DNA of 64,000 nucleotides. It comes from Flectonema sp. DT1601 (taxonomy: Eukaryota). Within the stretch, counting starts at the first letter, position 1; the number at the start of each line of letters is the position of its first letter. The translations under genes were made by a program, and so were the position numbers. The notes under the pieces were generated by a model that ran no database searches, had not been told where the DNA came from, and worked only from the letters and a program-made list of their open reading frames with translations. The stretch is taken from positions 496,001 through 560,000 of the forward strand of contig OZ025780.1 of NCBI GenBank assembly GCA_964019425.1, given 5' to 3'. Positions 28,662 through 64,000 of this stretch are shown one piece after another.

Positions 28662-30463
<1,802 letters not shown>

Positions 30464-31169: not shown

Positions 31170-32968
<1,799 letters not shown>

Positions 32969-45264: not shown

Positions 45265-45695
45265 AGTGAACTTTTGATTCAGGCCCTTCCCATCGAACAG
45301 GACGAAGACTTCTAAAACCTGAGATGAACCAATTGAGTTGAAACAAACAAATAACAGAGACGCAACACATACCGGAACATCATCGCAAGCAATGCTTCGG
45401 ACCTCCGTCGACCTTCGTTCTTCCGGCGGCAAAAGGGAACAAGAAAGAACGGGCAATGAGACAAACCTGTTAGTTGGTGTTGTGTTGTTGTTAAAAACAA
45501 AAACATAAACGCCAGGAAGTTCGACAACGAAGACATCGACATCGATCGCTGCTCTGCAGATGTCCGGCGGGTGTTTGTCTACACTGTGTTTATTGTTTGT
45601 TTTTTTCCCAAGGTTCAACCTTGGGAAGAGAGGTAAAAAATTCCGTCAATGTTGGCCTTCCTGCTCGAAGGTGCGCACCAATGACGATAAATAGA
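45265..45695. repeat. ~430-bp segment repeated in inverted orientation at 51492-51920
   Basis: ORF-track peptides 45226-45618(-) and 51568-52098(+) are nearly identical; contains intron-like GT...AACAG segments. Confidence 0.9.
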
Positions 45696-46855
45696 GTGAC
45701 ATGGGCAGAAGGTTTGAGTCCGCCAGACACAGAAGAACATGAGGAAAATGAAACTCCGCCGAGAAAGTCTGAGCGTTCAACTCTGAAAAAACGAACCCCT
45801 CCATCAAGATATCGTTACAATCGAAGGAGATGTTCTGCTGATGACGTTCACGGTGACTCCACCCCCTTGTAATTCTCTTTTTCCTTACTTTCACATCACT
45901 TTGTTTATTTAGTTTTTTAGCTTATTTATTATTTATTGTTCGTTTTTGTTTGTATTATTTTATCGATATGTTTATGTCCGTCAGATCATAACGTTAATCA
46001 GGTTAATTGTTAATTGTTAATTGTAAATGGTCTCCATGGTGTCCAACTAAATTAAAGGACAAGTCTGGGATAATCCCTGCCAGAGGGGCGAGTATTCTAC
46101 CATGGTTGAAATACTCTGGCAACTGATCTTCAATTTTATGTTGTTTGTTAGCTGCTGGTGTATCTTGATCATGTGTTGATACTTGCATTTTTTTATTTGT
46201 AATCTTCTATTACAATTCTCTTTCTGTTCTGGTCTGTTACTTCATTTGTCTTGTTTAACTTCAGTTATATGCATTTTACTTTTTATTGTTTCCCATCTAC
46301 TTTTTATTTTCTATTAGTTCTGGTCAGAAACCCCTGGGCAGCAAGAAGGAAAGCAGTTAAGTACTTCTGGGTGTTTGGCATCACCCCCCATAGTGAGCAA
46401 GTACAACAGGTAGCATTGGTAGTCTGTTGATCCTGAGTGATCCCAGCTACAGTTTTGTTTTTCTTTCTTTTTTTAGAAGAAGATCAGGACATCCAAGCAC
46501 TGCTGGATAGTTGCTGAATGCAGGGCCTGCCTGTGGCATTATAATAACAGGCTAAGTCATTTGTAGTTCATAGTTTACCTTTGATTTTATAACTTCACAT
46601 AGGTACTATGAACGATGAGAGATCCAGTGGGATCACTCAGGGTCTAGTAGAGACCACCAATGTTGTGCGTTGATATGCAAGGTGACCAACCTTGACATTC
46701 TTTCTTTTCTCTCCTGTTGTGACAAACACAAAATACACACACAGCTTACAGTGTGTTCTTTGTGTATGTTTTCTTCAGGTGTGAGTAGTTTTTTTGTTCT
46801 TGCTCTTCAGGGAGGGCCTTAGCCAAAAGCTAACAGTCCAAATCTCACCTGGTAG

Positions 46856-47175
46856 GACGCTAAACTGATTGTTTTTTCTTTAAAAATAAATAAAAAGAAT
46901 AAAAAAAAAAAAAAAAAGGAATAAACAATGTTATCATTGTTTTTTTTTATCGATCGACTATGTCGATTACTTTCTATTTTCCGTCCTGGTCAAGACGCTA
47001 AACTGATTGTTTTTTCTTTAAAATAATTAAAAGGATTTAAAAAAAAAAAAAAAAAAAAAAGAATAAACAATGTTATCATTGTTTTTTTTTCTATCGATCG
47101 ACTATGTCGATTAATTTCTATTTTCCGTCCTGATCGAGACGCTAAACTGATTGTTTCCTTTTTTTTAAATAATAA

Positions 47176-47190
<15 letters not shown>
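46856..47190. repeat. Tandem ~140-bp repeat, about 2.4 copies
   Basis: GACGCTAAACTGATTGTTT at about 46856, 46994 and 47138; two copies of GAATAAACAATGTTATCATTG...ATCGATCGACTATGTCGATTA. Confidence 0.85.
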
Positions 47191-47216
<26 letters not shown>

Positions 47217-47345
47217 ATCTCCCTGCTATCCCTCATATCCCCACAATAATATTATACCTTTTCATTTTCTCTTTCCTTTTCTGGTCTTTTTTTTTTTTTT
47301 TTTTTTTTTTTTCCTTTTTCATACAACGTTTTTTTATTTATATAT

Positions 47346-49120
47346 GAGGATGTGCAGAAACCCCCCCCCCAATTTTTACCAGGCTATCCCGTGGGCACCT
47401 AACACCCAATCCGAGCCCACCACCCCACGAAAATAGTATCCAAAAAACTCAAATCCGGTACTGGGGCACCCTTTTACTGCCCACCAGTTTAAAAATTTCA
47501 CTTTTTTGACTGTTTCTAGTAACATTTGCCTTGTAAGCTGTGTGGCACTGGTAGAAATTATGTTTGAAATTTTGTTTTTCTTGAAGGCCCAGATTTCCTG
47601 CGATTTAGATGCGAGTGTCAGCACAGATGTGATATTGCCAAAGTGTCAACCACATTCGGACTTGCCATGCCGACTAGGGAAAAAGTTAACCCAAGCTGAT
47701 TAACCTATTTTACAGAACAGGCTGATGACGGTTGTGTTCTCAAGGTGCCTACCAGCATCAGCCCAATAGTGAATCATCTTATCATTCTCAGACATCAAGA
47801 AGAACTTATTCATAACCTGATACGTTACTATCGCATTCTGGTTGATGTGTGGGAGTAGGAAGTTGTTATGGCCACACTGAACCTCAGTTCCAAACTGCTC
47901 ATGTAGTACACATCCAAGCAGACTATTTCCCCTGTTGATAGAAAGGGGAATTTGGCCCTTCTGTCATTAGAAGCCCTTTTCTTTATAATCCAGAGTCATG
48001 ATATAGTCACCAGGATGGATTAGATGTATCTTCTCAATACACCTGACATGTCTCTTATCTTCAATGTGAGAATCTATTTCAATAATTCCTCTCATTGTTG
48101 TTCGCTTCTCAGCTTCGGACTTTATGAGCGCCAGAAGGAAGTTACGATGATGTTGAAGGCCCCAGAGATCCACCCATTACGTCTGTCAACATCACAGATA
48201 CATGTGGCGAATACTGAAGATGCCGGGCAGGCAAGCTTCTTTCATGGATTCTTGTCGATGAGACGGTAGTTGCACACATTCGTACAGCGTCGTAACTGCT
48301 GAAACTCAACTCCAGGTAGAGAACAGTACTGTGTGTATGAGATAGTGTCTTTTAGAGGGGAGTTATTATCGACTAGTTGATACGAGGTCATCATGTTTTC
48401 AACAGTAACAGTAAAAGTAACTGCCTCTCTCCTTTTTTTGATACTTGGAGGAGTTTTATATTATGGTACCAATAATGGTTACCAGTTCTTATTGAACCTG
48501 ATTTTTCATGTCAGGTGTTACAACTGACAGGCAACCACTGACTCCACCTTCTTGTCCCTATTCTTCCACAATTCCTTTCCTACTACTATCCCAGTCTTAT
48601 TCACTTCTGCTATCCCCAGCCACTGGAACATAGAGCTTGTAGCGGCGTCCTCAAGCGGCTATAGATTCTAGAAAAACTCCAGTAATCCTGAGGGTGTACT
48701 TATTGTGAACAGCATGCTCACATTGCTCAATCATCACTGCCAGCAAGGGTGACTCAGAATCACCACCCGATATCGTACTCTGCAGTTCTCACGGGATCTA
48801 TGATTCTCCTGTCTCATCACTTCTCCTGTTCCTATCATTCCAGTCTTCATAGGAACCCAGGGTGTAAACAAATTTTTGCAATGTAGCTGCTAAGCTGGTT
48901 TTTGAGTATTTTGAGGGCAACCAACAGAGACACAAGGCAAAAGTACCAGAAACAGTCAAAAAATATAGAATTTTGAAACTGGTGAGCAGTTAGAGGATGC
49001 CCCAGTACCGGATTTGAGTTTTTTGGATAGTATTTTCGTGGGGTGGTGAGCTCGGATTGGGTATTAGGTGCCCACAGAATAGCCTGGTAAAAATTGGGGG
49101 GGGGGTTTCTGCACCGCCTC
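47346..49120 (-). mobile_element. Sola-like (Sola2-type) DNA transposon with decayed transposase, 1775 bp
   Basis: ~200-bp imperfect TIRs with GAG...CTC ends, 4-bp direct repeat ATAT; minus-strand remnant LDYKEK...HYWADAGRH...NFFPSRHGKSECG*HFG with in-frame stops (about 47630-48170). Confidence 0.8.
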
Positions 49121-49339
49121 ATATATATTTTTTTTTTTTTTTTTCATGTTTGATTATTTCCTCTTCATATTTTTTTCTTTTTTCTTTTCTTTCTTTTTTT
49201 TCTTTTTTTTCTCTGCCTCTCTCTTAATTCTGTTCGTTTCTTTGAAACGAAAATTCATTTGAATATTATTCCTTGGTCAGCAACCATCATTGTCGCCCTT
49301 TGGGCCTGTTAAAAAAAATAAAAAATAAAAAGAAAGTTT

Positions 49340-49906
49340 ACATCGGGAATAGGGCAGGAGCCAAAAGCTCCCAGTCCGTTACTTCCCACTTTATCGAAAT
49401 TCAGCCCTGTCTTTGCTAGGTATGGGCACCCCTGCCAGCATGTTATAAGAACTCTCATGCACCTCAGCATTGACATTAAGACCGGAGCCCTTCCCCACTG
49501 CTATAGTATTCTGGGTTATCGGAAGCTGTATCGTCCAGCGCTATACCCTTCACGAACACCATTAGGTGCCCTTCAAGCAGATGGCACACTGCCACCGGAA
49601 GTGAGGAAGGGAGTTGGGAGAAAAAAGAAGCTCCGAATTAGGAGTAAGGGGGAGGTCCGTGAAATCACGTGCCGTAAGTGCTTGCAGAAAGGTCACAACA
49701 AGAGGGGATGCAAAAACACAACGGCTGGAGCTGCCAAGCCTGCCCCAAAGGTAGCTGCCAAGAAGTCATCTGCCAAGCCTGCCCCAAAGGTAGCTGCCAA
49801 GAAGTCATCTGCCAAGCCTGCAAAGAGGCGGAAGCGTAAGTACTCATCAAGCTCAACAAGTTCCTTAACAAGTTCATCGTCAAGTTCATCATCAAGTTAT
49901 TCATAG
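49340..49906 (+). pseudogene. 3' fragment of a Mutator (MULE) transposase: degenerate SWIM plus CCHC knuckle
   Basis: FARYGHPCQHV (SWIM), Y...Y, PP.VRK..GR.KK.R, CRKCLQKGHNKRGC, then a 39-bp tandem AKPAPKVAAKKSS and Ser-rich tail; followed by (TTAG)n. Confidence 0.8.
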
Positions 49907-50162: not shown

Positions 50163-50900
50163 GCTAGGGACTCCACGAAGGAGGTCTCAAGAGTCGAGGA
50201 AAAGACAGAGCCAAGACCCCAGAGCCAACCCAAAACACATGGTAGAGGACGAGGGAGAACAAGAGCGGGAGCGAGGTTAGAAACGTGACCAAAGCCCCCT
50301 CGAAGCAGGAGACACAACCTGCAACCAGACCCCCCCAAAAAAAAAAAAAAACCCCCGGTCAACGAGGCAAACTCAGACCAGAACATGCTTTTCACCCCCC
50401 CCAGGAAACACCGACCAGTGGAGCCAAAGGCCGCACACATATTATAAAAATCAAAGGCCGCCCCCCAACCCAAGAAAAGGATGAAAAACTATCAAGCGAA
50501 AAAACTTGACGTCCGTACGCCCCAGAGAACAAAGGACGGACGACTCACACCCCCTTCTTTCGCCCCATTTTATTTACTGGTACAGCGACAAATGTAAAGC
50601 TGGGTAGACGACGAATTATTTTTTGTGCACAGAGACAAGGGATCCATGAGAACAAAGGATCAAGAGAAGAAGTGCACATTCCCCATCCCAAACCCAGAAA
50701 CATGAGAACTCATTAAATTGAAGGGTCATGTCTTTTCAAGTCGAAAAATGCTTAAATGCTAAAGAAGACTGTCGTCCCCAGCTCGCGGGTTTTCCCTGTC
50801 GCTGTATGTCGAGACAACGATCAGAGTCAGTAGAAAGATTGTACAAATTTGTTGTATAATGAGAAAGGACAAAGAGAGTAGTTTCCATTTTATCTTCCCG

Positions 50901-50964
<64 letters not shown>
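50163..50964 (+). mobile_element. 5'-truncated copy of the RLE retrotransposon (3'UTR plus poly(A))
   Basis: Reverse complement of 52717-53458 with scattered substitutions; ends TTATCTTCCCG plus A-tail 50901-50964. Confidence 0.92.
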
Positions 50965-51108: not shown

Positions 51109-51146
51109 GGTCAGGGCCCCAGTAACTTAAAAAAAAAAAAAAATGG
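51109..51146 (+). repeat. 38-bp direct repeat, left copy (right copy 63959-63996)
   Basis: GGTCAGGGCCCCAGTAACTT(A)15TGG is identical at both positions. Confidence 0.92.
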
Positions 51147-51443
51147 CTGTCTATTTCGGAAACTATTTTGTGTGGAGCTGTTAGCAGATTATAGGTTTTC
51201 TACTGGAAAAAAAAAATTTTTTGCTGAAAAAATTTTTTTTGTTGCTGAAAAAAAAATTTTTGTTGCTGAAAAAAAAAATTTTTTTTTGCTGTCCATTTCG
51301 GAAACTTTCGTGTGTGGAGCTGTCCATTTCGGAAACTTTTTTGTGTGGAGCTGTCCATTTCGGAAACTTTTTTGTGTGGAGCTGTCCATTTCGCAAACTT
51401 TTGTGTTGAAATCCGACATTTCGCAAACTTTTTTGTGGAATTA
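51147..51443. mobile_element. Solo right-end TIR of the 35940-37335 element family
   Basis: GCTGTCCATTTCGGAAACT...GTGTGGA 31-bp subrepeats ending GTGGAATTA. Confidence 0.85.
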
Positions 51444-51491
51444 TCAGCTCGTGAAGGGATCCAGTTGGTTCAAAGGTTTTCTCCCCCCACT

Positions 51492-51920
51492 CTATTTATC
51501 GTCATTGGTGCGCACCTTCGAACAGGAAGGCCAACATTGACGGAATTTTTTACTTCTCTTCCCAAGGTTGAACCTTGGGAAAAAAACAAACAATAAACAC
51601 AGTGTAGACAAACACCCGCCGGACATCTGCAGAGCAGCGATCGATGTCGATGTCTTCGTTGTCGAACTTCCTGGCGTTTATGTTTTTGTTTTTAACAACA
51701 ACACAACACCAACTAACAGGTTTGTCTCATTGCCCATTCTTTCTTGTTTCCCTTTGCCGCCGGAAGAACGAAGGTCGACGGAGGTCCGAAGCATTGCTTG
51801 CGATGATGTTCCGGTATGTGTTGCGTCTCTGTTATTTGTTTGTTTCAACTCAATTGGTTCATCTCAGGTTTTAGAAGTCCTCGTCCTGTTCGATGGGAAG
51901 GGCCTGAACCAAAAGTTCAC
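51492..51920. repeat. Inverted copy of 45265-45695
   Basis: Direct comparison of the two segments. Confidence 0.9.
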
Positions 51921-52649
51921 TGCCCCTATTCCTTTCCCAAATCTCTTATCCATTGTTTTTCCCAAAAAAAAAAAAAGGAAAAGAAAAAAAAAATATGAAG
52001 AGGAAATAATCAAACATGAAAAAAAAAAAAAAAAAAAAAATATATACTGTAAATATTCTTGTGGGGAAAAACCCGCGAGTTTTTTTTATTTTTTCTAAAT
52101 CCGCGAGAATTTTTCCCCGCGAGAGTATTTCCCTGCCAGCATACATTTTTATACAGCCATTTTTTTAGTTCCTTTTTGTGGAGGAGTGAATAAATCAACA
52201 GGGGGGATAGGGGCTGGATCCTTTTGGGATCGGCCCTCCCTTCACTTCCGCTCTCCAACGGGGGTCGCATCCCAGCCAATCGTCAGCGAAGAAAAGATTG
52301 CAAGGCATCGGCAAGCAGGCACAAAGAAACACTTAAGAGGGTAATAGTACAAACCTGTTTATTTTGTTTTTTTTAGGCGATTAACTATGCCAGATGCCAA
52401 GCAAACCAAGCGAGTGACGATCAGCTTCCTTCAGAGGTGGAGGAGCAGCGGCAGTGTGGCAAACCTCCTCCTTCATCTGCATCCATGCTCCAGTGCAGGT
52501 GAGCCACTCTCTTCATCAAGTTGATGCTATCGCCTGTAACTGATGCATGTGACGTTATAGTCTATAGCCCGAAATTAAAAAAAAAGGAATAGTTTAAAAA
52601 AAAAAAAGATCTTAACTCATTGATATTGTTTCTGAGCCATTCTCTTTTC

Positions 52650-52707
<58 letters not shown>

Positions 52708-53453
52708 TTTTTTTTTCGGGAAGATAAAATGGAAACTACTCTCTTTGTCCTTTTTCATTATACTGTTAATTAGTACAATCTTTCTACTGACTCTGATCGT
52801 TGTCTCGACATACAGCGACAGGGAAAACCCGCGAGCTGGGGACGACAGTCTTCTTCAGCATTTAAGCATTTTTCGACTTGAAAAGACATGACCCTTCAAT
52901 TTAATGAGTTCTCATGTTTCTGGGTTTGGGAAGGGGGAATGTGCACTTCTTCTCTTGATCCTTTGTTCTCATGGATCCCTTGTCTCTGTGCACAAAAGAT
53001 AATTCGTCGTCTACCCAGCTTTACATTTGTCGCTGTACCAGTAAATAAAATGGGGCGTAAGAAGGGGGTGTGAGTCGTCCGTCCTTTGATCTCTGGGGCG
53101 TACGGACGTCAAGTTTTTTCGCTTGAAAGTTTTTCATCCTTTTCTTGGGTTGGGGGGCGGCCTTTGATTTTTATAATATGTGTGCGGCCTTTGGCTCCAC
53201 TGGTCGGTGTTTCCTGGGGGGGGTGAAAAGCATGTTTTGGTCCGAGTTTTCCTCGTTGACCGGGGTTTTTTTTTTTTTTTTTTGGGGGGGGTCTGGTTGC
53301 AGGTTGTGTCTCCTGCTTCGCGGGGGCTTTGGTCACGTTTCTAACCTCGCTCCCGCTCTTGTTCTCCCTCGTCCTCTACCATGTGTTTTGGGTTGGCTCT
53401 GGGGTCTTGGCTCTGTCTTTTCCTCGACTCTTGAGACCTCCTTCGTGGAGTCC

Positions 53454-56400
53454 CTAGCGCCTTCCCCCTTTCGACGAGAAGTCCAGGACCCTTCGCGTTG
53501 GATCCCCTTCTCTCTCCCTCATCTCTCCTTGGGTGCTTTTCTCACTCTGTGACGACGACCTTGTGACCAACTCTACTCCTGCCACACCTTGTCCGTCTCG
53601 CTCCGCCGGCTCCGGGCGTACGCCCGCGTCCGTGAACGAGGTCAGGGAGCCCGGGGGCCCGTGTGCGTACCCCATTGTGTCGGGTGTGTCTCCCTTACCT
53701 ACCCGACGCAGTGTGGGTTTCCTGTTGTAACTCCGCGGCGCCTGTTCCCTCGTGGTGCCCTCCACTGGCTCCGGTTCCTTCTGCTTGCGTCTCTTCCTCT
53801 TCGCTTTCCTGCTCGGGTCTGGGGAGAGAACCTCTATCCTCTCCCTCTCTTCTCCCTTCCTGTACCTCCTCCTCGCCTGCCGTTCACCTGAGCTCGGGGT
53901 GGACTCTCCCATTTCCGCCTGCAACACCTGCGGACTTGGGTCCTCCTTTCCGGCCCCCTTTGCCCCCGTCTTTGCCTTCCGGCCTCTCGTGCGTCCCCTT
54001 CCCGTATTTGTCTTCGGCGACACACACTCCTCCCTCTCCTCCTCCATTCCCTTTCTGTACTTCGTCCTCCCTCTCGTGCTCGGTGTCGACACCGTGCCCG
54101 GCGATCTCTCTGCGTCTTCCCCGCTCCCGTCACTACCCACTGCGCGTGGTCCCATCTTCGCCCCCAAACTGGATCTCTCGGCCATTGGTTTTGTTTCGCC
54201 TGAGTTCACCAGCTTTGAAAGGGGCTCCGATTGGCCCTCCCGTCGTGTTTCCGCGTTCCCCCCTTCTGGGTGTAGTCCCAGCATCCAGGCCATCTGACCT
54301 GCGTTCCCCTCGGGCGCCGCTCCCTCTTCCCATTCCTGTTCATCGACCGTCATGGTCATTTGGGAGTCTGACGATCCCTCCTCCTCTGTGTCCGACTCTG
54401 CCACCTGGACCACGTCCTCTGACGTCTCCTCGACGTACTGGACTACTGACCCTTCCGTCACATTTTCTCCGTCGACTTCCATCTCCGACTGTGAGTCTTC
54501 CAGGTCCTCCAACCCCTCCACTCCGTCCATGCCGTCTGACGACGGTGGTTCTCCTGAGTGGTGGGACGTCTCGTCCAGCTCGTCCCCCTTCTCGGCTTGC
54601 AGGTCCTCGGCCAGGTGATGGTTTTCGCCTGAGGTCTCTGCTGCCGACGGGTCTACTGACTGGTCCCTTTCGTCCGTCTGTTCTTCCGCTTCCATGTCCG
54701 ACGTCCCTGGACTCCCCAAGGAGCCTCCCGACATGGAACCGTTCCCTTCGTCCTGCCCTGTCGCTGGGGAGGATGATCTATCGTCATCTCCCTCCGACCC
54801 TTCCGAGCTCAACTCCAGGACTCCCGCCTCTACCCTTTGCACGGCCCCCTTCGGGGTTGGGACCGGGCTCTGCTCGTCTCGGCCCTCTACCCTCGCGTCT
54901 TCTCCTTCCACCGACTCTCGGCCGCCTGACGATCCCGTCCCCTCTTCTGTGTACTGGGGTTCCAGACGCAGTTGTCTTCCCTCCCACCGCATCGTGAAGG
55001 GACCCGTCTGTGTCCCGTGTCCCAGGCAGTTCTTTGCCCCCTCTGTGAAAACCTTCATCACGGCTTCCGTCACTGAGGTCGAGCCCTCCTTCGCCGCTTT
55101 TTCAGCCTCCTCCGTCGCGTGTGTTCTCATCCTCTCTGGCATCTCCACCAGCGTCGTACGCCTCCCCATCAACTCCGCCTCCTCCAGCACCTCTCTCTGG
55201 TCCGTCGACCAGTGTGTCGTGCTTCCTCGCAGCAGCAGGGATGCCTCCGCTGGGACGAGGCCTCCACACGCCTTGGCCGCTACCAGCCCCACCAGGGCTG
55301 CGAAGTATCGCCCCCAGTGTGTGTCTCCCGCTGGCAGGCCAGCTGACCATGTGCCCAACACCTCGAAACGGTGTGTGTCCAACCAGCTCGCCGCCGCCCC
55401 CAGACGGCCCGTTACCGGGTCTTCCTCGCATGCGTACACCAAGGTGTACCTCGTCCCTACTTCGCCAACCACCTCCCCCAGCAGGTGGGTTCGGAGGTAT
55501 CCCTCCGCCTCCCCCTTGCTTGCGAAACTCTTGTGTCTCGCCGCCGCGTAGCCTGACACCATCGAGTTCGCCTCGTTCCAGCATTGGAACAGGCCTACCG
55601 CCCTGCCCCTCGCCACTGCGTACCACTTACGTGGGCTGACACCCTCCGTGGCCCGGGTCGGTTCCCTGGTCTCCGGCTGCCACCTCTCTACGAACCTGTC
55701 CGCCTCCTTCCTGGAGGAGAAACTCTGGTGTGTCGCATTCGGGCACCCTTCCGTCTGTGCCTTCGCCTCCTCCCACGATGCATACACTCCCGGTTTCCAT
55801 CCCACCGCCACCGCATACAGCTTCTCCTCCTTCGACGGGGGGTCGGGGGATGGGGGCTCTTTTTCCTCGGGTTGTCCCACTTCCTGTGCTGGCTCGTCTC
55901 TCAGCCCTACTGCTTCCGCTCCTTGTGCGTCCGTCGTCCGCGCTTCCACCTGGGCTGGCGCTTCGGCTCGTGGTCTGTCTTCGCCTGATGCCGTCGACCC
56001 TCCTGGGAGCGACTGGGATTCATCCGGTTCCGCCGCCTTTCCCCTCAATTGGGACAGCCCCAGATTCATCTCCAGCTCGATCACCAAGTAGTCGAGCCCG
56101 TCCTCCGAGAGTTCCACCGGCTCGTCCCATGCCGCCGATTCCGCTTCCCAGAGGGCCAGGTTCTCCACCCCTCGTGAGCTTTCCGTCACCTGGTGTTCTA
56201 TCACCGACGGGAGCGCTACCAACTTCAGCGCCTCCTGCTGCTCGACTCCCCACCCCTGCTGCGGTGTGACCACCTCGATCTGTGTCTCACCCCCCAGCAG
56301 TTGCGATCTCTCCCTGATCGCGTTGAGCCCTAGCAGCGCTGCCACGTACTCCGCAGTCGCTTCGTCCCATGTCGGTAGGCAGCCCGACCACGTGAACCTC

Positions 56401-59400
56401 CTGTCGAGCGTTCCCATGTGTATCAGGCATGCCGCCGCCCCCAGCTTCTCCATCTCCGCGTTCCAGACGCTCGATACCAGTAGGAGCAGCTTGCGCTGTG
56501 CCTGCCCCCCTGTTACTCGCGTCCGGAGGACACACTCCGCCTCTTCCCTGGACGTGTACCCCGCGGTGTCCTCCTCCGACGGCGGTGCCTCGCGTACCTC
56601 CATCCGGTCCTTGTTCGCCACCGGAATCCATCTCACCGGCACCCCGACGTCCTCTTGGGTCGATCCCTCCACCCTCGAGTAGACCACTACTACTGGTTTC
56701 GTCCCGTGGATCTCCTCTGTCGACACTTGGCTTATTGCCTTGTCGTCTTGCTTCTGCCAGCCTACTCCGTCCCACGTGTATGACACGTAATGCCCCGCGT
56801 TGTCACTCCCGAGGTGTGCGATCGCTCCCGTTTGCTGGTACGTCATCACCCTCTCCCCGACCTGCACCTGGAAGCGCTCTTCCCATCCCAAGGACCCTTG
56901 CGTGTCCTGCTTGTCTCTCTGGAAGATCAAGGAGCTTGGGAGCGAGGCGAAACTCTCTTCCAGCGTGGCCTCATTGCTGCCGCACAGCTTCTCGCAGGAC
57001 CGCTCGACTCTCTCCTTCGTCGGCTGAAGCCTCACTTGTGGTGTACGGCCACACAGTGGGATCAGCGTCAACTCATCCGTCGATCCGGAGGCGTCCGCAC
57101 ATCCCGTGCAGACCAGCTGTTTCAGCTGTACTGCCGAGAACAACGGTTCGCACACCTCTTTCTTCTCCTCCAACAGGGCGTCTACTATGGACGTCAGGGT
57201 TCCTACTACCTCCCCCTGCCGCCTGTCTTGTAGCGGGTCGAACATCTCGGACAGCTTCTCCAGGCACTCCCCACTCCCTTTGACCACTCCACTCAGGAGG
57301 CCCGACATCCCCACTTCCTCCTTCCCCGTCAGCACTTGTGTCAGTGCCGTGCCCTTCAGCAGGCACTGTACGGACGCGTTGAGGTAGCAGGAGTTCCCGA
57401 TGTTCGGCAAACCTCTCATCGTCGGGGGCGGTCCTGCCGACTGTCGCATTACTTCCGGCTGCTGGATCTCTTCCGTTTCCGCTCTCGGTCTTGGTTCTCT
57501 CTCTTGTGATGTCGGCTTCTCCGTCATCTCGGGCGGCGGTTTCGTCCTTGGCAATGGGTTCACTGAGTCCATCGCCACCGACGCCTCCCTCGCTCTCAGT
57601 GCTTCCGCCGTCGCCACTACCACCGATGTCGAGATCCTCCTCGCCATCTCCCCCGCGATCTCCCGGTGTGGCACCGTCGAGTTCGTTGCGCAGATCTGCA
57701 CCAACTTCTTCAGGGTCCCCACTGCTTCCCGTCCCATCCCTCCGTACGCTTCCAGCGCAATTGTCGAGAAATTAATCCCGTGTTTCGTGCACTGCTCCGC
57801 GTACTTGTTCCCTTTCAGGGACTCTGCTTCTCTCGCGGCTTGCCCCGGGGTTTTATACAATTTAATTTTCCCCGGGTTTACCACTGTGATGTCGAAGGCT
57901 CTGCCTCTCCCCTCCCTCAGCCCCTCTTGGCAGTACCAGTCCCCCGGTCTCTGCTTGTTGGGTCCCAGTAGGTGGCTGGGTTCTCTCAGCAGCGGCAATC
58001 CCGCCTGCTTAAAGATGGAGATGAACTCCTCCTTCACCCTCTCGTGTCGCTGGTGCACGTGGCCGTTTTTGATACAGATTGAGGCATGGTATCCCTGCCT
58101 ATCCTGTGGGCCTGAGCATATCCTGCATACTGCCCCTTCCGCGAACAGCGCTGCGCCCAATCGCATCCCACATGCGATCCTGAACGTCTCTGGGTCCATC
58201 GCGCACTCTTCATCTGCTTGTTGCAGCCATGCGCTCGCCTTATCCATGCGCAGGGAGAGCAGCCTCCCTTTATCGCGCGGGTCATTCGCCCCCGCCAGCA
58301 GGCAGTCTCTCTTGACCTGGTCCAGTTTCGCCGAGGACAGCCTCTGGGGGTTCGGCCCCGGCCCGTCTTCTTCTATCCTTAGCTCCTCCGGGAGGGCGAG
58401 GTTCAACCCCTTCTTCAGTGCTGGCATCAGCACCCCCTTGAACCCCTCCCACAGTGACTTGCTCACCCCTTGGACTAATTCCAGGGATCCCAATAGTGCT
58501 GCTCCCCTGTGCTCTGCACATGACCGCAGCCCCAATCCCCCCATCCGGGTCGGCAGTTGTGCTTGCATCCACTTTGGCCCCTCCAGTGTCAGGCCCAACA
58601 CTCGGCTCGCCGTGGACCTCATCAGCTCGTCCACCTTCCGCATCGAGGTGTCCATTTTCCCATGCGTGCAGCATCGCATCAGGTGGGTCACCTTGCAGAA
58701 GCCCATGCATTGCCTTAGGAGCACCATGGCCACCTGCCGGTCCTGCAGGTCTGCTAGCAGCTCCGCTTTCTTCTCCAGCTGCGCCACCTTCCTGTCGACG
58801 AACTCCTGGCAGTGTTCCTCCGTCCCGAACGGTGCCCCCAGGAAGTCCCCGTTGTACAGTGGGGGTCTCATCCCTTCCAACCCCCACCCCAAGGGCAGGG
58901 TGTTCTGGGCTGAGTCGAGCACGTGCGTCTGGCACTTGTCCGGCCTCAGCGTCAGCCCCAGCTCCGCCGTCTCCTTCTGCAGGATTTGGAGGGCCTTGTC
59001 TACCTGTTCCAGGGTGCCCGCCACCAGCCCATCGTCCAGGTAGAAGCACGCCAACTCCGGCTTCGCCTCCAACACCTTCTGCAGCGCCGGCTTGATTGCC
59101 AACGAGAACAGCAAGGGACCCAACGGATCCCCCTGCTGAGCGCCCTCCTCCGAGCTCAGCCTCTCGTCCCCAAACAGCAACCACGTCGGCGCTCCGTAAC
59201 ACCAGCTGACCCAGCTCTCCAGCAGGGTATCCCTCGTCGAATCCAGGAACGCCCCCCTCTTCACGCAGTTGAAGGCGTTCGAGAAGTCTATCTTCACGAA
59301 CACTTTCTGTGACGAGAGCGCGTGCTCCGCGCGGAACTCATGCAGGGTGTGCACCGCCGCCTCCACTCCCCCCGACACCGCTACTCCCAGCTGTCTCACT

Positions 59401-61976
59401 TCTAGCAACGAGCTCCTCGCCTGGGACCTGTATGCCCCGCACAGGATCTTCGCCACCAGCCGCCTCCATGTTTCCCCCACCGCGACTGGCCGGTGCTCCC
59501 CCGGCTTCCCTTCTTTCTCCAGCGCCGTCAGGTTCGCCCCCGCCAGCAGCGGCGCTACTTCCCGCGGCGCCCTCCCGTTCGCCAGAATCCTCACCACCTC
59601 CGTGATCGAGGCTACCAGCCCCGGCACCTCACCCCGCTCCACCACGTCCTTCAGGTGTTGCGGCGCGAGGCCCGAAGGCCCTCCACTCGACCCCCTGTGG
59701 AAGGAGCGTAGGCATGCTAGCAGCTCCACCTCTGCTATCTGCACCTCCTGCCCTGCCGTGGCCGATGGGGGTCCGCTCGCCCTCGGGTGTAGGGTGCGCA
59801 TCTGCTCCAGCACCTTCTCGGTTCGTTCTGCTGGCGGCGGCGCGTCTAGGGCCGAGATCGCCTGTGACAGGCAACCCTCCCTCGCTAGCGACGTGGCCCT
59901 GTCGTTCCTTCCTTTTTGCCCCGCCTCTTTCACTGCTGGCCTTCCCGTCGCCTTGCGGGGGGCCGCCGCTTTCCACAGTCCCTCAAATTCCCCCCGAATC
60001 CATGCTTGCAGGTCGTCGACCGCCCCTGTCAGCTCGCTGGTCGACAACCTCCTACCCCCCCTCCGTATCCTCCGCAGTGTACAAGTCGGGAGCATCAAGA
60101 GCAGCTTCCATGCCCACTCATCGTTCCGCTCCACGACTAGGTCGAGCGACAGCTTGAGTGCTCGCCCCAGATGATGCAACAGGGACACCGGCAGCTTCTT
60201 CGCTATCGGCCTCCTCCTGCTGGCTATTTCCTCCAAAGAGGGGAAGCTCTGGCTCTCCAGCACCCGCTTCCGGAACGCCGTGTACACGTCCCCCAGTTGG
60301 ACCTTCTGCAGTTTCTCACTGCACCCCGGATGCATCGGCTGGTCCTGCCCGATGATCCCACAGCACACCGGACATTCCCGGAGGCCTAGCCTCGCCAACT
60401 GTCCATGCGTCAGCGGGTTGCCACTGAATGCGTGCTCGTCCACGTGTCTTAGGAGCTCCGCCCACTCCTCGAAGCCTCCCTTGTGTTTCGGGCACTCCGC
60501 TTGGGGGCACTCGTGCAGCTGGGCCTGTCGGGAGGCTGTCTGCAGCACTGCCGGCTCGCCTCCTGCTGCTTGCGACAGCGGGCCTGGCGACACTAACTCC
60601 AACCTCCGGGCGCTCTGTAGCAGCCGCGCGACGCAGTCCTCGGATGCCTCCACTGGGTCGTAGTGACACCCGTTCTGCAGGGTCAAGACCAGCGTCTGCT
60701 TCGGGTCCGATGGCCCTTCCACCACCAGCGTTTCCGTCCTCACCACGACGACGAAGCGGCACTGTAGGTCCTCTGCCATGACCTGTAGGGCCAACGCATC
60801 GCCCCAGCATCCATCTTCTTCTAACGCCCTCGCATATACTCCGAATGCGTTCGCGTCCTGGAAGAAGACCTCGAACCTTTCCCTGTTCTTGGTCAGGTAC
60901 CCTGCCGTTCTCCTGCGGAGCTCTCCATGTCTGCCCTTCCACCCCTCTGGCGTCTCTAGGAGTTGGCACACACTCCTGAACAGGCAATTCCCATCCCCAA
61001 TCACCCGAAATACTTTTGCTCCCTCGCACTTCAGGCTTGCCAGTTCCGGCGCGGGTCCCGTCGCTACCCCCAGCCGTCCCTTGAGGTCCAACATCTCCCG
61101 ACACCTCACTGTCTGGTGCACCAATCCGGTACTCAGCTCCCCGCAGGCCTTGCAGATCTGCTTTCCGAGTCTGTCGGAAGCCATCTGGGCCGTTACCTCC
61201 CCCGGTACCACTCCCTTCAGGTGTTGTTTGAAGTGGTACTCTAGGTCACCCCTCACCCAGACGCTGCACCCCACCACCGGGCACTTCGTCCTCTCCTTGC
61301 TTTGCCCTCCTCCTGCCAGGTCTGACGGCCTCGCATACCATGGTCTGGGCTCCGCCTTGTGCCCTCCTGGCTTTGTCCAGTCCCTTTCGGGCCCTGCCCG
61401 TCGCTTCTTCGGTGTCTCCGCCTTGTTCTTCCTTGGCCTCTCTGTCTCCGCGCGGAATCTCTCTCGCCTGGCGTGGAACTTCTCCAACTCTCCCGCCCAC
61501 CGCTCCCACCTCTCCTGCCGTTCCTTCAGCAGCTTCCTCCTCCTCCTTTCCAGCCGCCTTGCCGCCTTGGACGCCACTTTCGGGGACGCCCTCTTCAGGA
61601 GCTCCCTTCCTCCCTTGTCTGGAGGTGGCTTTGGGTGGTCTCGCCTCACCCGGTTCCCGGCCGTTTCCGTTCCCCTCCGCGGGACCCACACCCCCTCTCG
61701 TCCATGTTGGAAAGCGCGTCCGCTTGCCGTATTGTTGGGGCTGTTTGAGCTGTTGGGGGTTACAAATGGGTGCGGGGGGATCGGGCGTGTTACGCGTCGG
61801 CTGATGCGCGATGAAAACAGTGGGCCTTTGTCCAGCGTTGTGAATAGAGGGGTGTGCCATCCGCCTGGCACTGGGGCTAACCTCTGCTTACCCACTCCGG
61901 ACGTCTGTTGCGCCCTCGTTCCACTTAGTAGTGCCCACAGCAGCACGTACCCACACAGTAACATTGTTTTCTCCAT
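53454..61976 (-). CDS. Retrotransposon polyprotein (~2840 aa): ZnF - OTU - ZnF - RT - CCHC - RLE - USP - RNaseH-like - 2x RNase H1 hybrid-binding - RNaseH-like - acidic tail
   Basis: First in-frame ATG 61976 (MEKTMLL). RT: HRPVAVGE, KIDFSNAFN, QQGDPLGPLLF, FYLDD, GGLG. CRIC..HASIC; RH..RPGD..FDITV..K..KY (RLE). GDGNCLFRS..HYD (OTU). GLPNIGNSCYLN..GHYVSY..QDD (USP). YAVAVGWKPGVYASW and YAVARGRAVGLFQCW. Confidence 0.95.
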   Translation of the reverse strand: MEKTMLLCGYVLLWALLSGTRAQQTSGVGKQRLAPVPGGWHTPLFTTLDKGPLFSSRISRRVTRPIPPHPFVTPNSSNSPNNTASGRAFQHGREGVWVPRRGTETAGNRVRRDHPKPPPDKGGRELLKRASPKVASKAARRLERRRRKLLKERQERWERWAGELEKFHARRERFRAETERPRKNKAETPKKRRAGPERDWTKPGGHKAEPRPWYARPSDLAGGGQSKERTKCPVVGCSVWVRGDLEYHFKQHLKGVVPGEVTAQMASDRLGKQICKACGELSTGLVHQTVRCREMLDLKGRLGVATGPAPELASLKCEGAKVFRVIGDGNCLFRSVCQLLETPEGWKGRHGELRRRTAGYLTKNRERFEVFFQDANAFGVYARALEEDGCWGDALALQVMAEDLQCRFVVVVRTETLVVEGPSDPKQTLVLTLQNGCHYDPVEASEDCVARLLQSARRLELVSPGPLSQAAGGEPAVLQTASRQAQLHECPQAECPKHKGGFEEWAELLRHVDEHAFSGNPLTHGQLARLGLRECPVCCGIIGQDQPMHPGCSEKLQKVQLGDVYTAFRKRVLESQSFPSLEEIASRRRPIAKKLPVSLLHHLGRALKLSLDLVVERNDEWAWKLLLMLPTCTLRRIRRGGRRLSTSELTGAVDDLQAWIRGEFEGLWKAAAPRKATGRPAVKEAGQKGRNDRATSLAREGCLSQAISALDAPPPAERTEKVLEQMRTLHPRASGPPSATAGQEVQIAEVELLACLRSFHRGSSGGPSGLAPQHLKDVVERGEVPGLVASITEVVRILANGRAPREVAPLLAGANLTALEKEGKPGEHRPVAVGETWRRLVAKILCGAYRSQARSSLLEVRQLGVAVSGGVEAAVHTLHEFRAEHALSSQKVFVKIDFSNAFNCVKRGAFLDSTRDTLLESWVSWCYGAPTWLLFGDERLSSEEGAQQGDPLGPLLFSLAIKPALQKVLEAKPELACFYLDDGLVAGTLEQVDKALQILQKETAELGLTLRPDKCQTHVLDSAQNTLPLGWGLEGMRPPLYNGDFLGAPFGTEEHCQEFVDRKVAQLEKKAELLADLQDRQVAMVLLRQCMGFCKVTHLMRCCTHGKMDTSMRKVDELMRSTASRVLGLTLEGPKWMQAQLPTRMGGLGLRSCAEHRGAALLGSLELVQGVSKSLWEGFKGVLMPALKKGLNLALPEELRIEEDGPGPNPQRLSSAKLDQVKRDCLLAGANDPRDKGRLLSLRMDKASAWLQQADEECAMDPETFRIACGMRLGAALFAEGAVCRICSGPQDRQGYHASICIKNGHVHQRHERVKEEFISIFKQAGLPLLREPSHLLGPNKQRPGDWYCQEGLREGRGRAFDITVVNPGKIKLYKTPGQAAREAESLKGNKYAEQCTKHGINFSTIALEAYGGMGREAVGTLKKLVQICATNSTVPHREIAGEMARRISTSVVVATAEALRAREASVAMDSVNPLPRTKPPPEMTEKPTSQEREPRPRAETEEIQQPEVMRQSAGPPPTMRGLPNIGNSCYLNASVQCLLKGTALTQVLTGKEEVGMSGLLSGVVKGSGECLEKLSEMFDPLQDRRQGEVVGTLTSIVDALLEEKKEVCEPLFSAVQLKQLVCTGCADASGSTDELTLIPLCGRTPQVRLQPTKERVERSCEKLCGSNEATLEESFASLPSSLIFQRDKQDTQGSLGWEERFQVQVGERVMTYQQTGAIAHLGSDNAGHYVSYTWDGVGWQKQDDKAISQVSTEEIHGTKPVVVVYSRVEGSTQEDVGVPVRWIPVANKDRMEVREAPPSEEDTAGYTSREEAECVLRTRVTGGQAQRKLLLLVSSVWNAEMEKLGAAACLIHMGTLDRRFTWSGCLPTWDEATAEYVAALLGLNAIRERSQLLGGETQIEVVTPQQGWGVEQQEALKLVALPSVIEHQVTESSRGVENLALWEAESAAWDEPVELSEDGLDYLVIELEMNLGLSQLRGKAAEPDESQSLPGGSTASGEDRPRAEAPAQVEARTTDAQGAEAVGLRDEPAQEVGQPEEKEPPSPDPPSKEEKLYAVAVGWKPGVYASWEEAKAQTEGCPNATHQSFSSRKEADRFVERWQPETREPTRATEGVSPRKWYAVARGRAVGLFQCWNEANSMVSGYAAARHKSFASKGEAEGYLRTHLLGEVVGEVGTRYTLVYACEEDPVTGRLGAAASWLDTHRFEVLGTWSAGLPAGDTHWGRYFAALVGLVAAKACGGLVPAEASLLLRGSTTHWSTDQREVLEEAELMGRRTTLVEMPERMRTHATEEAEKAAKEGSTSVTEAVMKVFTEGAKNCLGHGTQTGPFTMRWEGRQLRLEPQYTEEGTGSSGGRESVEGEDARVEGRDEQSPVPTPKGAVQRVEAGVLELSSEGSEGDDDRSSSPATGQDEGNGSMSGGSLGSPGTSDMEAEEQTDERDQSVDPSAAETSGENHHLAEDLQAEKGDELDETSHHSGEPPSSDGMDGVEGLEDLEDSQSEMEVDGENVTEGSVVQYVEETSEDVVQVAESDTEEEGSSDSQMTMTVDEQEWEEGAAPEGNAGQMAWMLGLHPEGGNAETRREGQSEPLSKLVNSGETKPMAERSSLGAKMGPRAVGSDGSGEDAERSPGTVSTPSTRGRTKYRKGMEEEREECVSPKTNTGRGRTRGRKAKTGAKGAGKEDPSPQVLQAEMGESTPSSGERQARRRYRKGEERERIEVLSPDPSRKAKRKRRKQKEPEPVEGTTREQAPRSYNRKPTLRRVGKGDTPDTMGYAHGPPGSLTSFTDAGVRPEPAERDGQGVAGVELVTRSSSQSEKSTQGEMREREGDPTRRVLDFSSKGGRR

Positions 61977-61979
61977 TCT

Positions 61980-62016
<37 letters not shown>

Positions 62017-62127
62017 ACTCTTCCTTTTCCGTTCCCTTCGCTGTGGATGATTTGTGTATGGAACCCGAAAAAAGACAATCGACTTACCTGCTCTTCTCCT
62101 TGTTAGCCCTGTACGTGTGTGTGGAGT

Positions 62128-62182
<55 letters not shown>

Positions 62183-62349
62183 CCGGCTCGCGTATCCTCC
62201 GCTTTCCGAACTCTTCTGTCTATGCGGTCACCCCCGTACAGTTCCGACGCAGAATGGTAGTCACCACCACAGGCACCAAACAAAGCTAGTGAGAGAGTTC
62301 TTCCTTCTCCTCTCCCGCAGGCTGATTCGTAAAGTTTTGTCTTAAAAGA

Positions 62350-62650
62350 GAGTTTTAACAAGAACAAAAAAAGGATATGCTCTGTTTGCAGGTCTTAAAA
62401 GCAAAGTTTAAACGAGAACAAGAAAAGATATGTTCTTCTCGCGCGCTGACTAGCGGAAGACCGTGTATCAAAGCAGAGTTTAAACAAGAACAAAAAAAAA
62501 AAAAAAGGATTTGTTCTTTTCGCTGTCTTAAGCGGTGTTTAAACGAGAACAAGAAAAGATATGTTCTGTTCGTGCGATGTTTTGCGGAAGACCGTGTCTC
62601 AGTGTAGTCTTAACGAAGAACAAAAGAAAATATTTGTTCTGTTTGCGCGT
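62350..62650. repeat. Degenerate ~60-70-bp tandem repeats upstream of the retrotransposon ORF
   Basis: TTAAAC(A/G)AGAACAA..AAA.GATATGTTC-like motif about five times. Confidence 0.75.
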
Positions 62651-62887
62651 TCACCAGCGGTCCAGTCTCCAGAAAAGATGAGAAGGACGTATGAGCTGGA
62701 GGAATAATTAACTTTTGACAAAAGCAAAGTACTCTCGAAGACAACTCGAATCAGAATGCAGGTGGGGAAAATTTCAACTCCCTCTTCAGCAGAGCAAGGT
62801 TTCCACAGCAACAACAATTATCCGCGCCTTCAATGTCCGTTTGTGACTGCTGGCCGACTCAAAGCGTTCGTAGACCGAAGATAGATG

Positions 62888-62918
<31 letters not shown>

Positions 62919-63002
62919 TCCTACCCCGCCGATGTACTAGAGCTTACTGAAGGACCCGCGTTTATCTCCTCCTCTGCAAGTATGCCTATGCAAAATCTAA
63001 TT

Positions 63003-63034
<32 letters not shown>

Positions 63035-63159
63035 CCTCTTTCTTCCTTAGTATTTTCTAAATAAACAACGACAAGTAATACCAAATTCTTCTAAATAAAT
63101 ATGACCTAATTAATATATATAATAAACAATAAATAAAAATTTTTTTCAACAATATACTT

Positions 63160-63213
63160 TGGCGCAGTGGTTTTTGTCACCGTCTGTCTTCTGGTCCACC
63201 TGGGTTCAATACC
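63160..63213 (+). promoter_or_regulatory. tRNA-like A-box/B-box pair
   Basis: TGGCGCAGTGG (63160-63170) and GGTTCAATACC (63203-63213) fit Pol III type-2 consensus; no full cloverleaf. Confidence 0.45.
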
Positions 63214-63277
63214 CTGTGGGGGTCGGGGGGCGACGGGGGCGACTTCTGCGACTTAAAAGACTTTAAAGCGCTAAGCG

Positions 63278-63923
63278 CTTCGCTACACGAACACGAGTGT
63301 GTCACGTGGCTGCCGCCGATTTCTTCTTTTGTTGGGGTGGGGGAGGGTGGATGGGGTGAGCGTGGGGAAGGGTGGTCGGGTTGTGGGATCCGCTTGCGTG
63401 GAAAAATTCCTAGCTGCGCTTTCCTACTCGCTGACGGGGATGGGGCGAGGGAGGGAAAAAACTGTGAAGAAGATGTTTTAATTTAACAATAACAAAAATG
63501 TACTCTAATGTAGACAGATAAATGTAACAAAATAACAGATAGTAACAGAATATACAGACAGATAAACAGACAGATAAACAAACAAATAAATAAGCAAATA
63601 AACAACAATCTAAGAGAGGAATGAAATTAAGAGGAAGTAATTAACAAAAGTAAACAAATAAATAAGGAAGAAGAAGGTCAGTCACATACACCGTCTCTTC
63701 TACGTCGTCGTCGTCGTCGTCTTCGAAGTCGCCGAAACGCTTCGCTACACGAACACGAGTGTGTCACGTGGCTGCCGCCGATTTCTTCTTTTGTTGGGGT
63801 GGGGGAGGGTGGATGGGGTGAGCGTGGGGAAGGGTGGTCGGGTTGTGGGATCCGCTTGCGTGGAAAAATTCCTAGCTGCGCTTTCCTACTCGCTGACGGG
63901 GATGGGGCGAGGGAGGGAAAAAA
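63278..63923 (-). repeat. Two direct copies of a ~185-bp GC-rich unit (63278-63461, 63738-63923) separated by a pyrimidine-rich (minus strand) spacer
   Basis: CGCTTCGCTACACGAACACGAG...GGGGCGAGGGAGGGAAAAAA occurs twice. Confidence 0.95.
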
Positions 63924-63961
63924 CAATAAAGTACAGAAACTGTAGCTTTAGAATCGTTGGT
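63924..63961 (-). other. Retroposed spliced-leader (mini-exon) sequence, diplonemid type
   Basis: Minus strand ACCAACGATTCTAAAGCTACAGTTTCTGTACTTTATTG; the 3' half CAGTTTCTGTACTTTATTG is the conserved euglenozoan SL; followed by TTTTTTCCC, not by the GT donor of an SL RNA gene. Confidence 0.93.
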
Positions 63962-64000
63962 CAGGGCCCCAGTAACTTAAAAAAAAAAAAAAATGGTTTT

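Follow-up and report, generated by a model that had tools for sequence, protein, structure and literature searches.

OTU and USP protease domains in one protein of a CRE-like non-LTR retrotransposon from Flectonema sp. DT1601

Why would a retrotransposon encode two different ubiquitin-type proteases in one protein, and is such a protein real? The question is raised by a 64,000-nt stretch of the Flectonema sp. DT1601 genome (GCA_964019425.1, contig OZ025780.1, positions 496,001 to 560,000 of the forward strand; hereafter the window, to whose first letter all coordinates refer), where an initial annotation made from the letters alone described an OTU protease ahead of a reverse transcriptase (RT) and a USP protease behind a restriction-like endonuclease (RLE). 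We are close to certain that the element is an intact, multi-copy, CRE-like retrotransposon without long terminal repeats (non-LTR) that carries both protease domains in a single protein. The open reading frame (ORF) runs without interruption over 2,840 codons at 53454–61976 (-), as first described, and forms a GC-rich island (~62% GC vs. ~40% for the window) with uniformly high GC along its length; the extension behind the RLE, first put at ~1350 amino acids (aa), comes to ~1,370 aa. The coordinates initially given for the element, 53454..61976, are right for the ORF, while the element itself reaches well beyond it, to ~52652–63958. Likewise, the domain list of OTU, RT, RLE and USP stood, but two hybrid-binding and two RNase H-like domains had been overlooked; the element was correctly called intact, but its AUG-depleted 5′ untranslated region (UTR) headed by a spliced leader (SL), its poly(A) tail, a nearby 5′-truncated copy and an (L/M)xGG motif had been missed. 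The element and the parts of its protein are as follows.

52652..63958 (-): probable full-length element of ~11.3 kb (SL, 5′ UTR, ORF, 3′ UTR, poly(A)), its 3′ end set by a second copy with the same end
53454..61976 (-): single ORF, 2,840 aa
61308..61976 (-): leader, aa 1–223, hydrophobic at aa 4–20, then basic, ending in LAGG; no significant Pfam match
61308..61319 (-): LAGG, aa 220–223, ubiquitin-tail-like predicted self-cleavage site, from motif comparison within the lineage
61101..61283 (-): zinc-finger pair 1, aa 232–292, by Cys/His motifs, with Pfam under cut-off; aligns with the Diplonema papillatum element
60636..61034 (-): OTU protease, aa 315–447, by Pfam and catalytic residues
60321..60509 (-): zinc-finger pair 2, aa 490–552, by motifs, with Pfam under cut-off; matches relatives P0108, P0027 and P0024
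58140..60179 (-): RT with N-terminal extension and thumb, aa 600–1279
57567..58127 (-): CCHC knuckle and RLE, aa 1284–1470, fitting the SLACS/CRE consensus
56667..57425 (-): compact USP (C19) protease, aa 1518–1770, by Pfam, Foldseek and catalytic residues
56097..56654 (-): degenerate hybrid-binding-like stub and RNase H-like domain 1, aa 1775–1960, probably inactive
55491..55823 (-): two RNase H1 hybrid-binding domains, aa 2052–2095 and ~2117–2162
54987..55481 (-): RNase H-like domain 2, aa 2166–2330, catalytic acids replaced; Atlas top match RNase H (0.90)
53457..54986 (-): acidic, then basic low-complexity tail, aa 2331–2840, by composition; likely disordered

Profiles confirm both protease domains, and for the USP the fold does so as well. 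Pfam scores exceed the cut-offs for OTU (aa 327–414, 49.2 bits vs. 23.3), UCH (aa 1521–1766, 44.0 bits vs. 23.9, covering profile positions 1–254 of 254) and RVT_1 (aa 821–1019, 62.2 bits vs. 29.6). The sequence motifs lie exactly where they were first reported, with GDGNC at 60984–60998 and HYD at 60657–60665 for the OTU, and with the Cys box GLPNIGNSCYLN at 57378–57413, GHYVSY at 56778–56795 and QDD at 56742–56750 for the USP. Catalytic residues said to be intact are indeed present in both: D328 and C331 in the Asp-x-x-Cys loop and H438 and D440 in the His-x-Asp motif of the OTU, and C1530, H1729 and D1744/D1745 in the Cys and His boxes of the USP. The best match of the OTU among PDB sequences is OTUD3 (4bou, E 7.6e-9), which extends along the full length and is modest in score (36 bits). 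A structure model of the USP (predicted local distance difference test, pLDDT, 77), folded from an alignment of 6 rows with USP-like rows among them, agrees with solved USPs, the best Foldseek match being USP36 (8bs3, E 3e-18, template modelling score 0.77). The domain is short, begins 45 aa past the endonuclease and shares 16–20% identity with solved USPs. Judged by these residues and profiles, the OTU and USP may function as ubiquitin-removing proteases. Viral contigs (L001–L080), many of them labelled giant-virus assemblies, also carry USP domains as compact as that of the element (261 aa as the median length matched), and USP relatives with ~20–25% identity over the domain are encoded in 227 of 600 scanned viral stretches. 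A giant-virus origin of the USP is not supported: all 80 viral loci lacked a match to an RT, and in the tree the window USP does not pair with viral ones.

The reverse transcription machinery is of the expected kind. The RT has YLDD at aa 979–982 and matches the R2 protein 9nl2 in the PDB (E 1.2e-5). In SLACS/CRE elements the RLE follows the consensus C-C-H-C, RHD/N, E, R/KPD, D/E (PMC12857005); the element reads C-X2-C-X9-H-X3-C-X8-RHE-X19-E-X10-RPGD-X15-D, with spacings that differ by 1 in places from the consensus quoted there, and C1284/C1287/H1297/C1301, D1346, D1362 and K1388 are present. This region is matched by 134 of the 150 nearest relatives described below. TALE matches to it were discarded as artefacts, being sums of weak repeat scores. 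The tail (aa 2331–2840) has no Pfam match, and one copy (P0002) lacks 173 aa at its start.

Between the USP and the tail lies a duplicated module, in which aa 1775–1960 and 2113–2330 are 28% identical (E 2e-10). The two hybrid-binding domains score 95.2 bits against Pfam Cauli_VI in two stretches and match 3bsu in the PDB (E 3e-6; Foldseek probability 1.00, E 0.015). An Atlas search with either RNase H-like part gives RNase H clusters (0.90–0.91). Of the catalytic Asp-Glu-Asp of RNase H, unit 2 keeps none and unit 1 the Glu only, as read from a three-row alignment with the RNase H1 P0222 (23% identity), and the units are probably inactive hybrid-binding modules. No hybrid-binding domain was found by Pfam in the 150 nearest RT relatives.

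The element belongs to a family of copies. The 90% cluster of its protein has 35 members, of which 15 are listed; two of these 15 (P0007 and P0015) are full-length sisters, 99.4–99.5% identical to the window protein, 11 keep the C-terminus and have lost the N-terminus, as expected of 5′-truncated copies, and two are older internal fragments. Might the ORF nevertheless be an artefact of assembly, or have arisen once by fusion with a gene for a host USP? A relative of this appearance exists: P0137 matches P0178 up to aa 995, then diverges into a USP Cys box and is suspected of being a gene-model chimera. In the element, however, the RLE–USP junction is spanned in six of the 15 listed sister copies, on contigs of six differing sizes, and the same order recurs in the D. 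papillatum protein KAJ9439003.1. Moreover, contigs from two public runs share four variants with sister copies (T2764S, M2329V, D2016E and R2013Q, at positions given by our own reading of the contig alignments), and the ORF is GC-rich throughout and uninterrupted. A chimera or one-off fusion is thus next to impossible in our estimate: the element is a mobile family, since the extension behind the RLE is common to other copies and to a deeply diverged D. papillatum family.

Relatives were taken as the best 150 matches to aa 600–1781 among 1.84 billion representatives; this query includes the USP, and the ranking therefore favours USP carriers. By Pfam, UCH exceeds its cut-off after the RLE in six of these relatives, Ulp1 exceeds its cut-off in one, and OTU is over the cut-off in one and under it in two; OTU and UCH together were found in none of the 150. 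A cluster look-up identified KAJ9439003.1 (P0204, 3,379 aa), which has OTU, RT, RLE and UCH (32.2 bits) in the order of the window protein, at identities of 24% in the OTU, 37% in the RT, 32% in the RLE and 22% in the USP, with the catalytic Cys and His kept. Its USP, like that of P0030, is preceded by a linker of ~600–900 aa. Word-based homolog searches were nearly blind, with 2 matches for aa 300–2300, 1 for the USP and 2 for the hybrid-binding unit, and a close-relative scan of metagenomes found none. In a neutral control of 80 metagenome loci chosen by RT motifs alone, our own narrow profiles gave no USP, OTU or hybrid-binding matches, and three of the 63 loci covering the RLE end extend >90 aa.

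The first RT–RLE tree left out 17 of 155 proteins with too short an RT–RLE coverage, and later trees used hand-picked subsets of 57, 31 and 23 rows; no curated reference of the CRE clade, taken widely to include Cnl1, MoTeR and FoTeR, was among the rows, whose only names are transferred "SLACS 132 kDa" labels on D. papillatum records. The element falls in an 11-row group with Shimodaira–Hasegawa support of 100 and 99 (LG+G4), within which four USP-bearing rows are joined (88, 97; LG+G4). Six further rows of the group (100/100) include full-length members that pair an OTU at the N-terminus with an OTU-like domain at the C-terminus, the latter recognized by motif and by the N-terminal OTU profile (independent E-value 2.7e-4 for P0186 and 0.027 for P0209; reversed sequences gave no match). 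The two-protease layout thus seems to persist in a sister branch while the C-terminal enzyme differs, USP in one and OTU-like in the other. OTU-like domains after the endonuclease, followed by Cys-rich fingers, were seen in P0186, P0187, P0180, P0208, P0209, P0029 and P0110, with apparently two such domains in P0110 and degenerate ones in P0025/P0215. The other USP carriers (P0130, P0133, P0157, P0112/P0175 and P0137) have a host-like USP after the RLE, USP35-like in P0157, and sit on a distant RT branch; holding all eight USP carriers together is rejected (approximately unbiased test, p 2e-44). A second capture of a USP elsewhere in the RT tree is probable rather than proven, because P0137 looks chimeric. 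Related RTs were also noticed to carry MLLE, Prim-Pol, PHD, Ulp1 or an N-terminal RNase H as accessory domains, in P0047, P0053, P0064, P0038, P0043, P0112, P0170, P0158, P0063 and P0132.

What the proteases might cut is suggested by the end of the leader. An (L/M)xGG motif stands at the boundary between the leader and the first folded domain in all five lineage members that have the region (P0001, P0204, P0186, P0209 and P0108), as LAGG in the window protein and KAJ9439003.1 and as LRGG, MRGG and MQGG in the other three; in P0204, LAGG is the only such motif in 3,379 aa. Protease-free relatives lack it in the 30 aa that precede their first zinc finger (0 of 32 and 0 of 19), and 3 of 41 have one at any position ahead of the RT. 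The coronavirus protease PLpro cuts its polyprotein at LXGG, which is also the C-terminus of ubiquitin (PMC7464072). Polyprotein processing, one of three uses proposed in the initial annotation, may thereby gain indirect support. At the start of the ORF (61917–61967, -) a hydrophobic stretch resembles a signal peptide, and hydrophobic leader segments were seen in three relatives too, in two of them with Arg runs after.

How the element is expressed and inserted can be read in part from its ends. At the 5′ side lie the following features.

63924..63962 (-): SL exon copy, joined as in a trans-spliced mRNA, with no GT intron after it; the sole SL copy in the window
63273..63924 (-): 190-bp unit in two copies (63735–63924 and 63273–63462), 99.5% identical, the second 462 bp downstream
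61977..63923 (-): probable 5′ UTR, nearly AUG-free by counts, with degenerate internal repeats at ~62338–62630
63959..63996 (-): 38-bp segment abutting the SL, identical to 51109–51146, a perfect direct repeat 12,850 bp apart

The SL exon is identical at 36 of 39 nt to the row "Euglenozoa 14" of PMC3795323. The second 190-bp copy is preceded by a pyrimidine-rich tract and AG, exactly at the position where the SL is joined to the first copy, and the stretch between the two copies is covered by contigs of both public runs. Since the SL junction coincides with a splice-acceptor position and no intron comes after the SL, this end appears to be a trace of reverse-transcribed, trans-spliced RNA and no SL gene. 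The stretch from SL to start codon holds 1 ATG in 1,947 nt vs. 26 on the opposite strand (shuffle mean 13.9; none of 1,000 shuffles as low), and the last 1,486 nt before the start codon hold none, the lowest count among 410 other stretches being 7. We read it as a 2-kb 5′ UTR on the strength of these counts. Rfam gave no match over 62000–64000. The 5′ extent of the element was inferred from the SL exon and the AUG depletion, and the 3′ extent was taken from the second copy; three contigs from one public run and none from the other lie on the 5′ region, and they do not fix the 5′ end.

The 3′ side and the second copy are laid out as follows.

52717..53453 (-): 3′ UTR, 737 nt, 97.2% identical to the truncated copy
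52652..52716 (-): poly(A) tail, ~65 nt, read in the sequence
50163..50964 (+): 5′-truncated second copy (3′ UTR and 64 A) with the same 3′ end as the long copy, preceded by a run of 10 A

Both copies end in poly(A), and the 3′ UTR has a folding z of -3.6 against 20 shuffles only. The truncated copy is flanked by an A-run; near the long copy lie the 38-bp repeat and a 9-mer, and these two are unlike a simple target-site duplication. The 38-bp repeat recurs 1.5 kb past the poly(A), and the window ends 4 nt beyond its upper copy; our best guess is filler copied from the target region, the alternative being a target duplication, though it is a poor fit to a simple one. We do not take the 9-mer at 61973 and 52637 for a target duplication, as it overlaps the start codon, which the sister P0007 shares. 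No SL sequence occurs at the 3′ flank of either copy in the window, and neither is inserted in an SL RNA gene.

What, then, are the two proteases for? We propose, at slightly below an even chance, that they would act on the element itself, cutting off the leader and stripping ubiquitin from its own complex. The RNA, to judge from its ends, would be trans-spliced and polyadenylated by the host, with the 2-kb AUG-free 5′ UTR before the ORF. The OTU (or the USP) could then cut after aa 223 and free the hydrophobic, basic leader, by analogy to PLpro at LXGG, a step that is possible and leans to the doubtful side. RLE elements insert by target-primed reverse transcription, carried out by the RLE and the RT. 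Here the RLE, its residues intact like those of the RT, would nick the target, and the RT would begin copying at the poly(A) tail of the RNA and often break off early; a preference for A-rich targets is weakly suggested. Next, the RNA:DNA hybrid would be held, uncut, by the hybrid-binding domains together with the probably inactive RNase H-like folds, for which we see the chances as evenly balanced. Finally, the deubiquitinases may shield the complex against being removed through ubiquitin, allowing it to last until insertion. More broadly, this RLE lineage, at least in diplonemids, might combine an RNA-virus-like polyprotein maturation, by a built-in deubiquitinase at a ubiquitin-mimicking (L/M)xGG, with an exchangeable second deubiquitinase, USP or OTU, behind the endonuclease; we offer this generalization as a somewhat unlikely one. 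If true, it would make this a non-LTR retrotransposon with proteolytic self-processing.

Several observations weigh against action on the element itself, or against the layout on which it builds. The (L/M)xGG motif was noticed by eye and post hoc, its anchor varies (a zinc finger in two members, the OTU in three), the five members that bear it are two related groups and not five independent cases, and in P0209 it stands at the predicted start. The OTU of KAJ9439003.1 scores 20.2 bits, under the Pfam cut-off of 23.3, with Cys and His present; in the D. papillatum USP, D-G takes the place of the usual pair of Asp/Asn, and the Q-x-D motif of the window USP reads Q-G-E. Under a mixture model the support of the 11-row group is 89/93 and that of the four USP-bearing rows 83/91, both unstarred, and the USP-domain tree joins these four at 89 with a long-branch warning. 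The RNase H-like fold of both units is weakly based: a PDB profile search places E. coli RNase H (E 0.2–0.7) behind MoaC (0.005), and the fold model is of low confidence (pLDDT 50), with no fold match over Z 4.2 from a model too poor for fold search. Lastly, one contig junction, at 61782, lacks an A-run at the 5′ side of the element, and strict poly(A) targeting was downgraded for this reason.

Other roles for the proteases have to be weighed. They might work mainly on host proteins at the insertion site, deubiquitinating histones or repair factors and steering repair to complete the insertion, which we consider unlikely. Lying directly behind the endonuclease and beside the hybrid-binding domains, the USP would sit at the nick, a DNA-repair role has been proposed for transposon OTU/Ulp1 domains (PMC2836005), and other relatives carry PHD fingers; yet the conserved (L/M)xGG at the leader boundary is left unexplained, and the USP of P0030 and P0204 follows a long linker. 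Very unlikely, in our view, is that the proteases counter ribosome quality control so that the 8.5-kb ORF is translated to its end. The resemblance of the OTU to OTUD3 fits this, as OTUD3 and USP21 oppose ZNF598-driven ribosome ubiquitylation (PMC7064338) and such a link has been suggested for deubiquitinases borne on ORF2p (PMC13405545), but the match is modest, and the ORF has no runs of ≥6 A, no 2A-like motif and only two basic runs of at least 5 residues.

It is likewise distinctly unlikely that one or both domains are captured cargo contributing little to transposition, or that their substrates are some ubiquitin-like modifier or other peptides instead of ubiquitin. The diversity of accessory domains in relatives (MLLE, PHD, Prim-Pol, Ulp1, RNase H) indicates that capture is frequent, the USP is short and far from solved USPs, and most relatives have no extension after the RLE. 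Conversely, the catalytic Cys and His are kept between families that are 22–24% identical in these domains, and the five long sister copies have one variant in the 261-aa USP vs. seven in the 510-aa tail, counts too few for a test of selection. Action on the element itself is the reading that we carry forward.

Ubiquitin/SUMO-type proteases recur in unrelated transposons, where the available parts of the literature give proposed roles only. Here an intact multi-copy element brings together two enzymes from separate families; it has a counterpart in D. papillatum, a model diplonemid with a sequenced genome, and its cleavage is predicted at one particular site. The role of transposon proteases is therefore addressable with point mutants. 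Furthermore, the slot after the endonuclease holds a USP in the one branch and, in its sister branch, an OTU-like domain. A full-length copy with its trans-spliced leader retained bears on how such elements can be expressed while having no promoter themselves.

The rest of the window contains further repeats and genes. A repeat family of 31-nt tandem units lies at 35940–37335 and 51146–51443, with 167-nt inverted arms at 35940–36106 and 37169–37335. Likely small mobile elements are a 434-bp inverted pair (45265–45698 and 51488–51921, 98%), 169-nt inverted arms around a 1.45-kb interior (47339–47507 and 48959–49127) and a 142-bp tandem repeat (46848–47209). An open frame at 49322–49906 (+), 260 bp before the truncated copy, has a CCHC knuckle and Lys/Ala/Pro repeats and by eye is possibly a transposon remnant. 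Also in the window are a 3,277-bp unit with two minus-strand reading frames, present in tandem as three near-identical copies (16577–26500), a pair of ATP synthase beta genes, near-identical and 2,508 bp apart (28659–32765, -), an isolated fragment of eukaryotic small-subunit rRNA (34710–35124, +; Rfam 84 bits), and a large, apparently intron-split gene (9256–16668, -) with many ~120-aa repeats and a C-terminal hydrophobic segment, which by eye resembles a cell-surface protein. The ATP synthase beta of the window scores 858 bits against 6f5d and 813 against 6tdy, the trypanosome and Euglena enzymes, and no more than 672 against all others. Both the SL exon and D. papillatum, source of the nearest named relatives, suggest a diplonemid host.

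How does the element compare with known systems? A search of the literature, which for most papers covered the title and the opening of the abstract and did not extend to Repbase, Dfam or bioRxiv supplements, turned up no account of a non-LTR element with a USP or with two deubiquitinases; the accessible part of PMC10318531 has no transposon terms. The initial view that the layout was undescribed therefore stands for this literature, but its uniqueness was overstated, as the same layout is in GenBank as KAJ9439003.1. A USP also follows the RLE in a separate branch of related RTs, and in Trichomonas XP_001314237.1 a C19 domain is fused to a DNA transposase (PMC2836005). KAJ9439003.1 shares the leader ending in LAGG, zinc fingers, OTU, zinc fingers, RT, RLE and USP in that order, and its family, like the element, is multi-copy with C-terminal fragments on many contigs; it differs in a ~900-aa linker before the USP and in having no hybrid-binding or RNase H-like module. 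Its record name, "Retrotransposable element SLACS 132 kDa protein", is transferred and silent on proteases, and the accessible text of the D. papillatum genome paper, with its 7 supplements searched, has SLACS-labelled gene models and mentions no proteases (PMC10161547).

Several transposons carry one such enzyme. NeSL and Utopia-1_TSP (Ulp1; PMC4640811), and Dualen/RandI (Josephin) and Symbiodinium ORF2p (OTU) (PMC13405545), have an N-terminal ubiquitin/SUMO-type protease fused to the RT protein, like the element, but each has that one protease, with no USP/C19 and none after the endonuclease. Among DNA transposons, ubiquitin-type proteases are found in Ginger1 (OTU or Ulp1, "not both") and Mutator (Ulp1) (PMC2836005, PMC6431247) and in Helitron/Helentron (OTU; PMC6431247); these and the Trichomonas case have one protease each, with function proposed only in the parts of those papers available. 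In coronaviruses, PLpro is a deubiquitinase within a replicase polyprotein that cuts at LXGG (PMC7464072), an analogy for the LAGG of the element, although PLpro is viral and unrelated in descent, and cleavage is shown there and predicted here. The order of hybrid-binding then RNase H-like domain is shared with RNase H1, and RNase H is also carried by Utopia, L1 and Dualen (PMC4640811, PMC5348765); compared with RNase H1, the unit is duplicated and its catalytic acids are replaced in the element.

Closest in plan is the trypanosomatid CRE clade (SLACS, CZAR, CRE1 and CRE2), with which the element shares a single ORF, N-terminal zinc fingers, RT then RLE (C-terminal in that clade), a poly(A) tail, internal repeats and a near-consensus RLE motif (PMC12278014, PMC12857005). 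Unlike that clade, it is not inserted in the SL RNA gene, bears a trans-spliced SL at its 5′ end, continues for ~1,370 aa after the RLE and carries OTU, USP and hybrid-binding/RNase H-like domains. Because insertion in the SL gene fails, the element is not filed with SLACS, CZAR and CRE1, although it works like a CRE element. OTU-RT-RLE-USP is a genuine layout, shared across a lineage and new for a retrotransposon whose kind is known.

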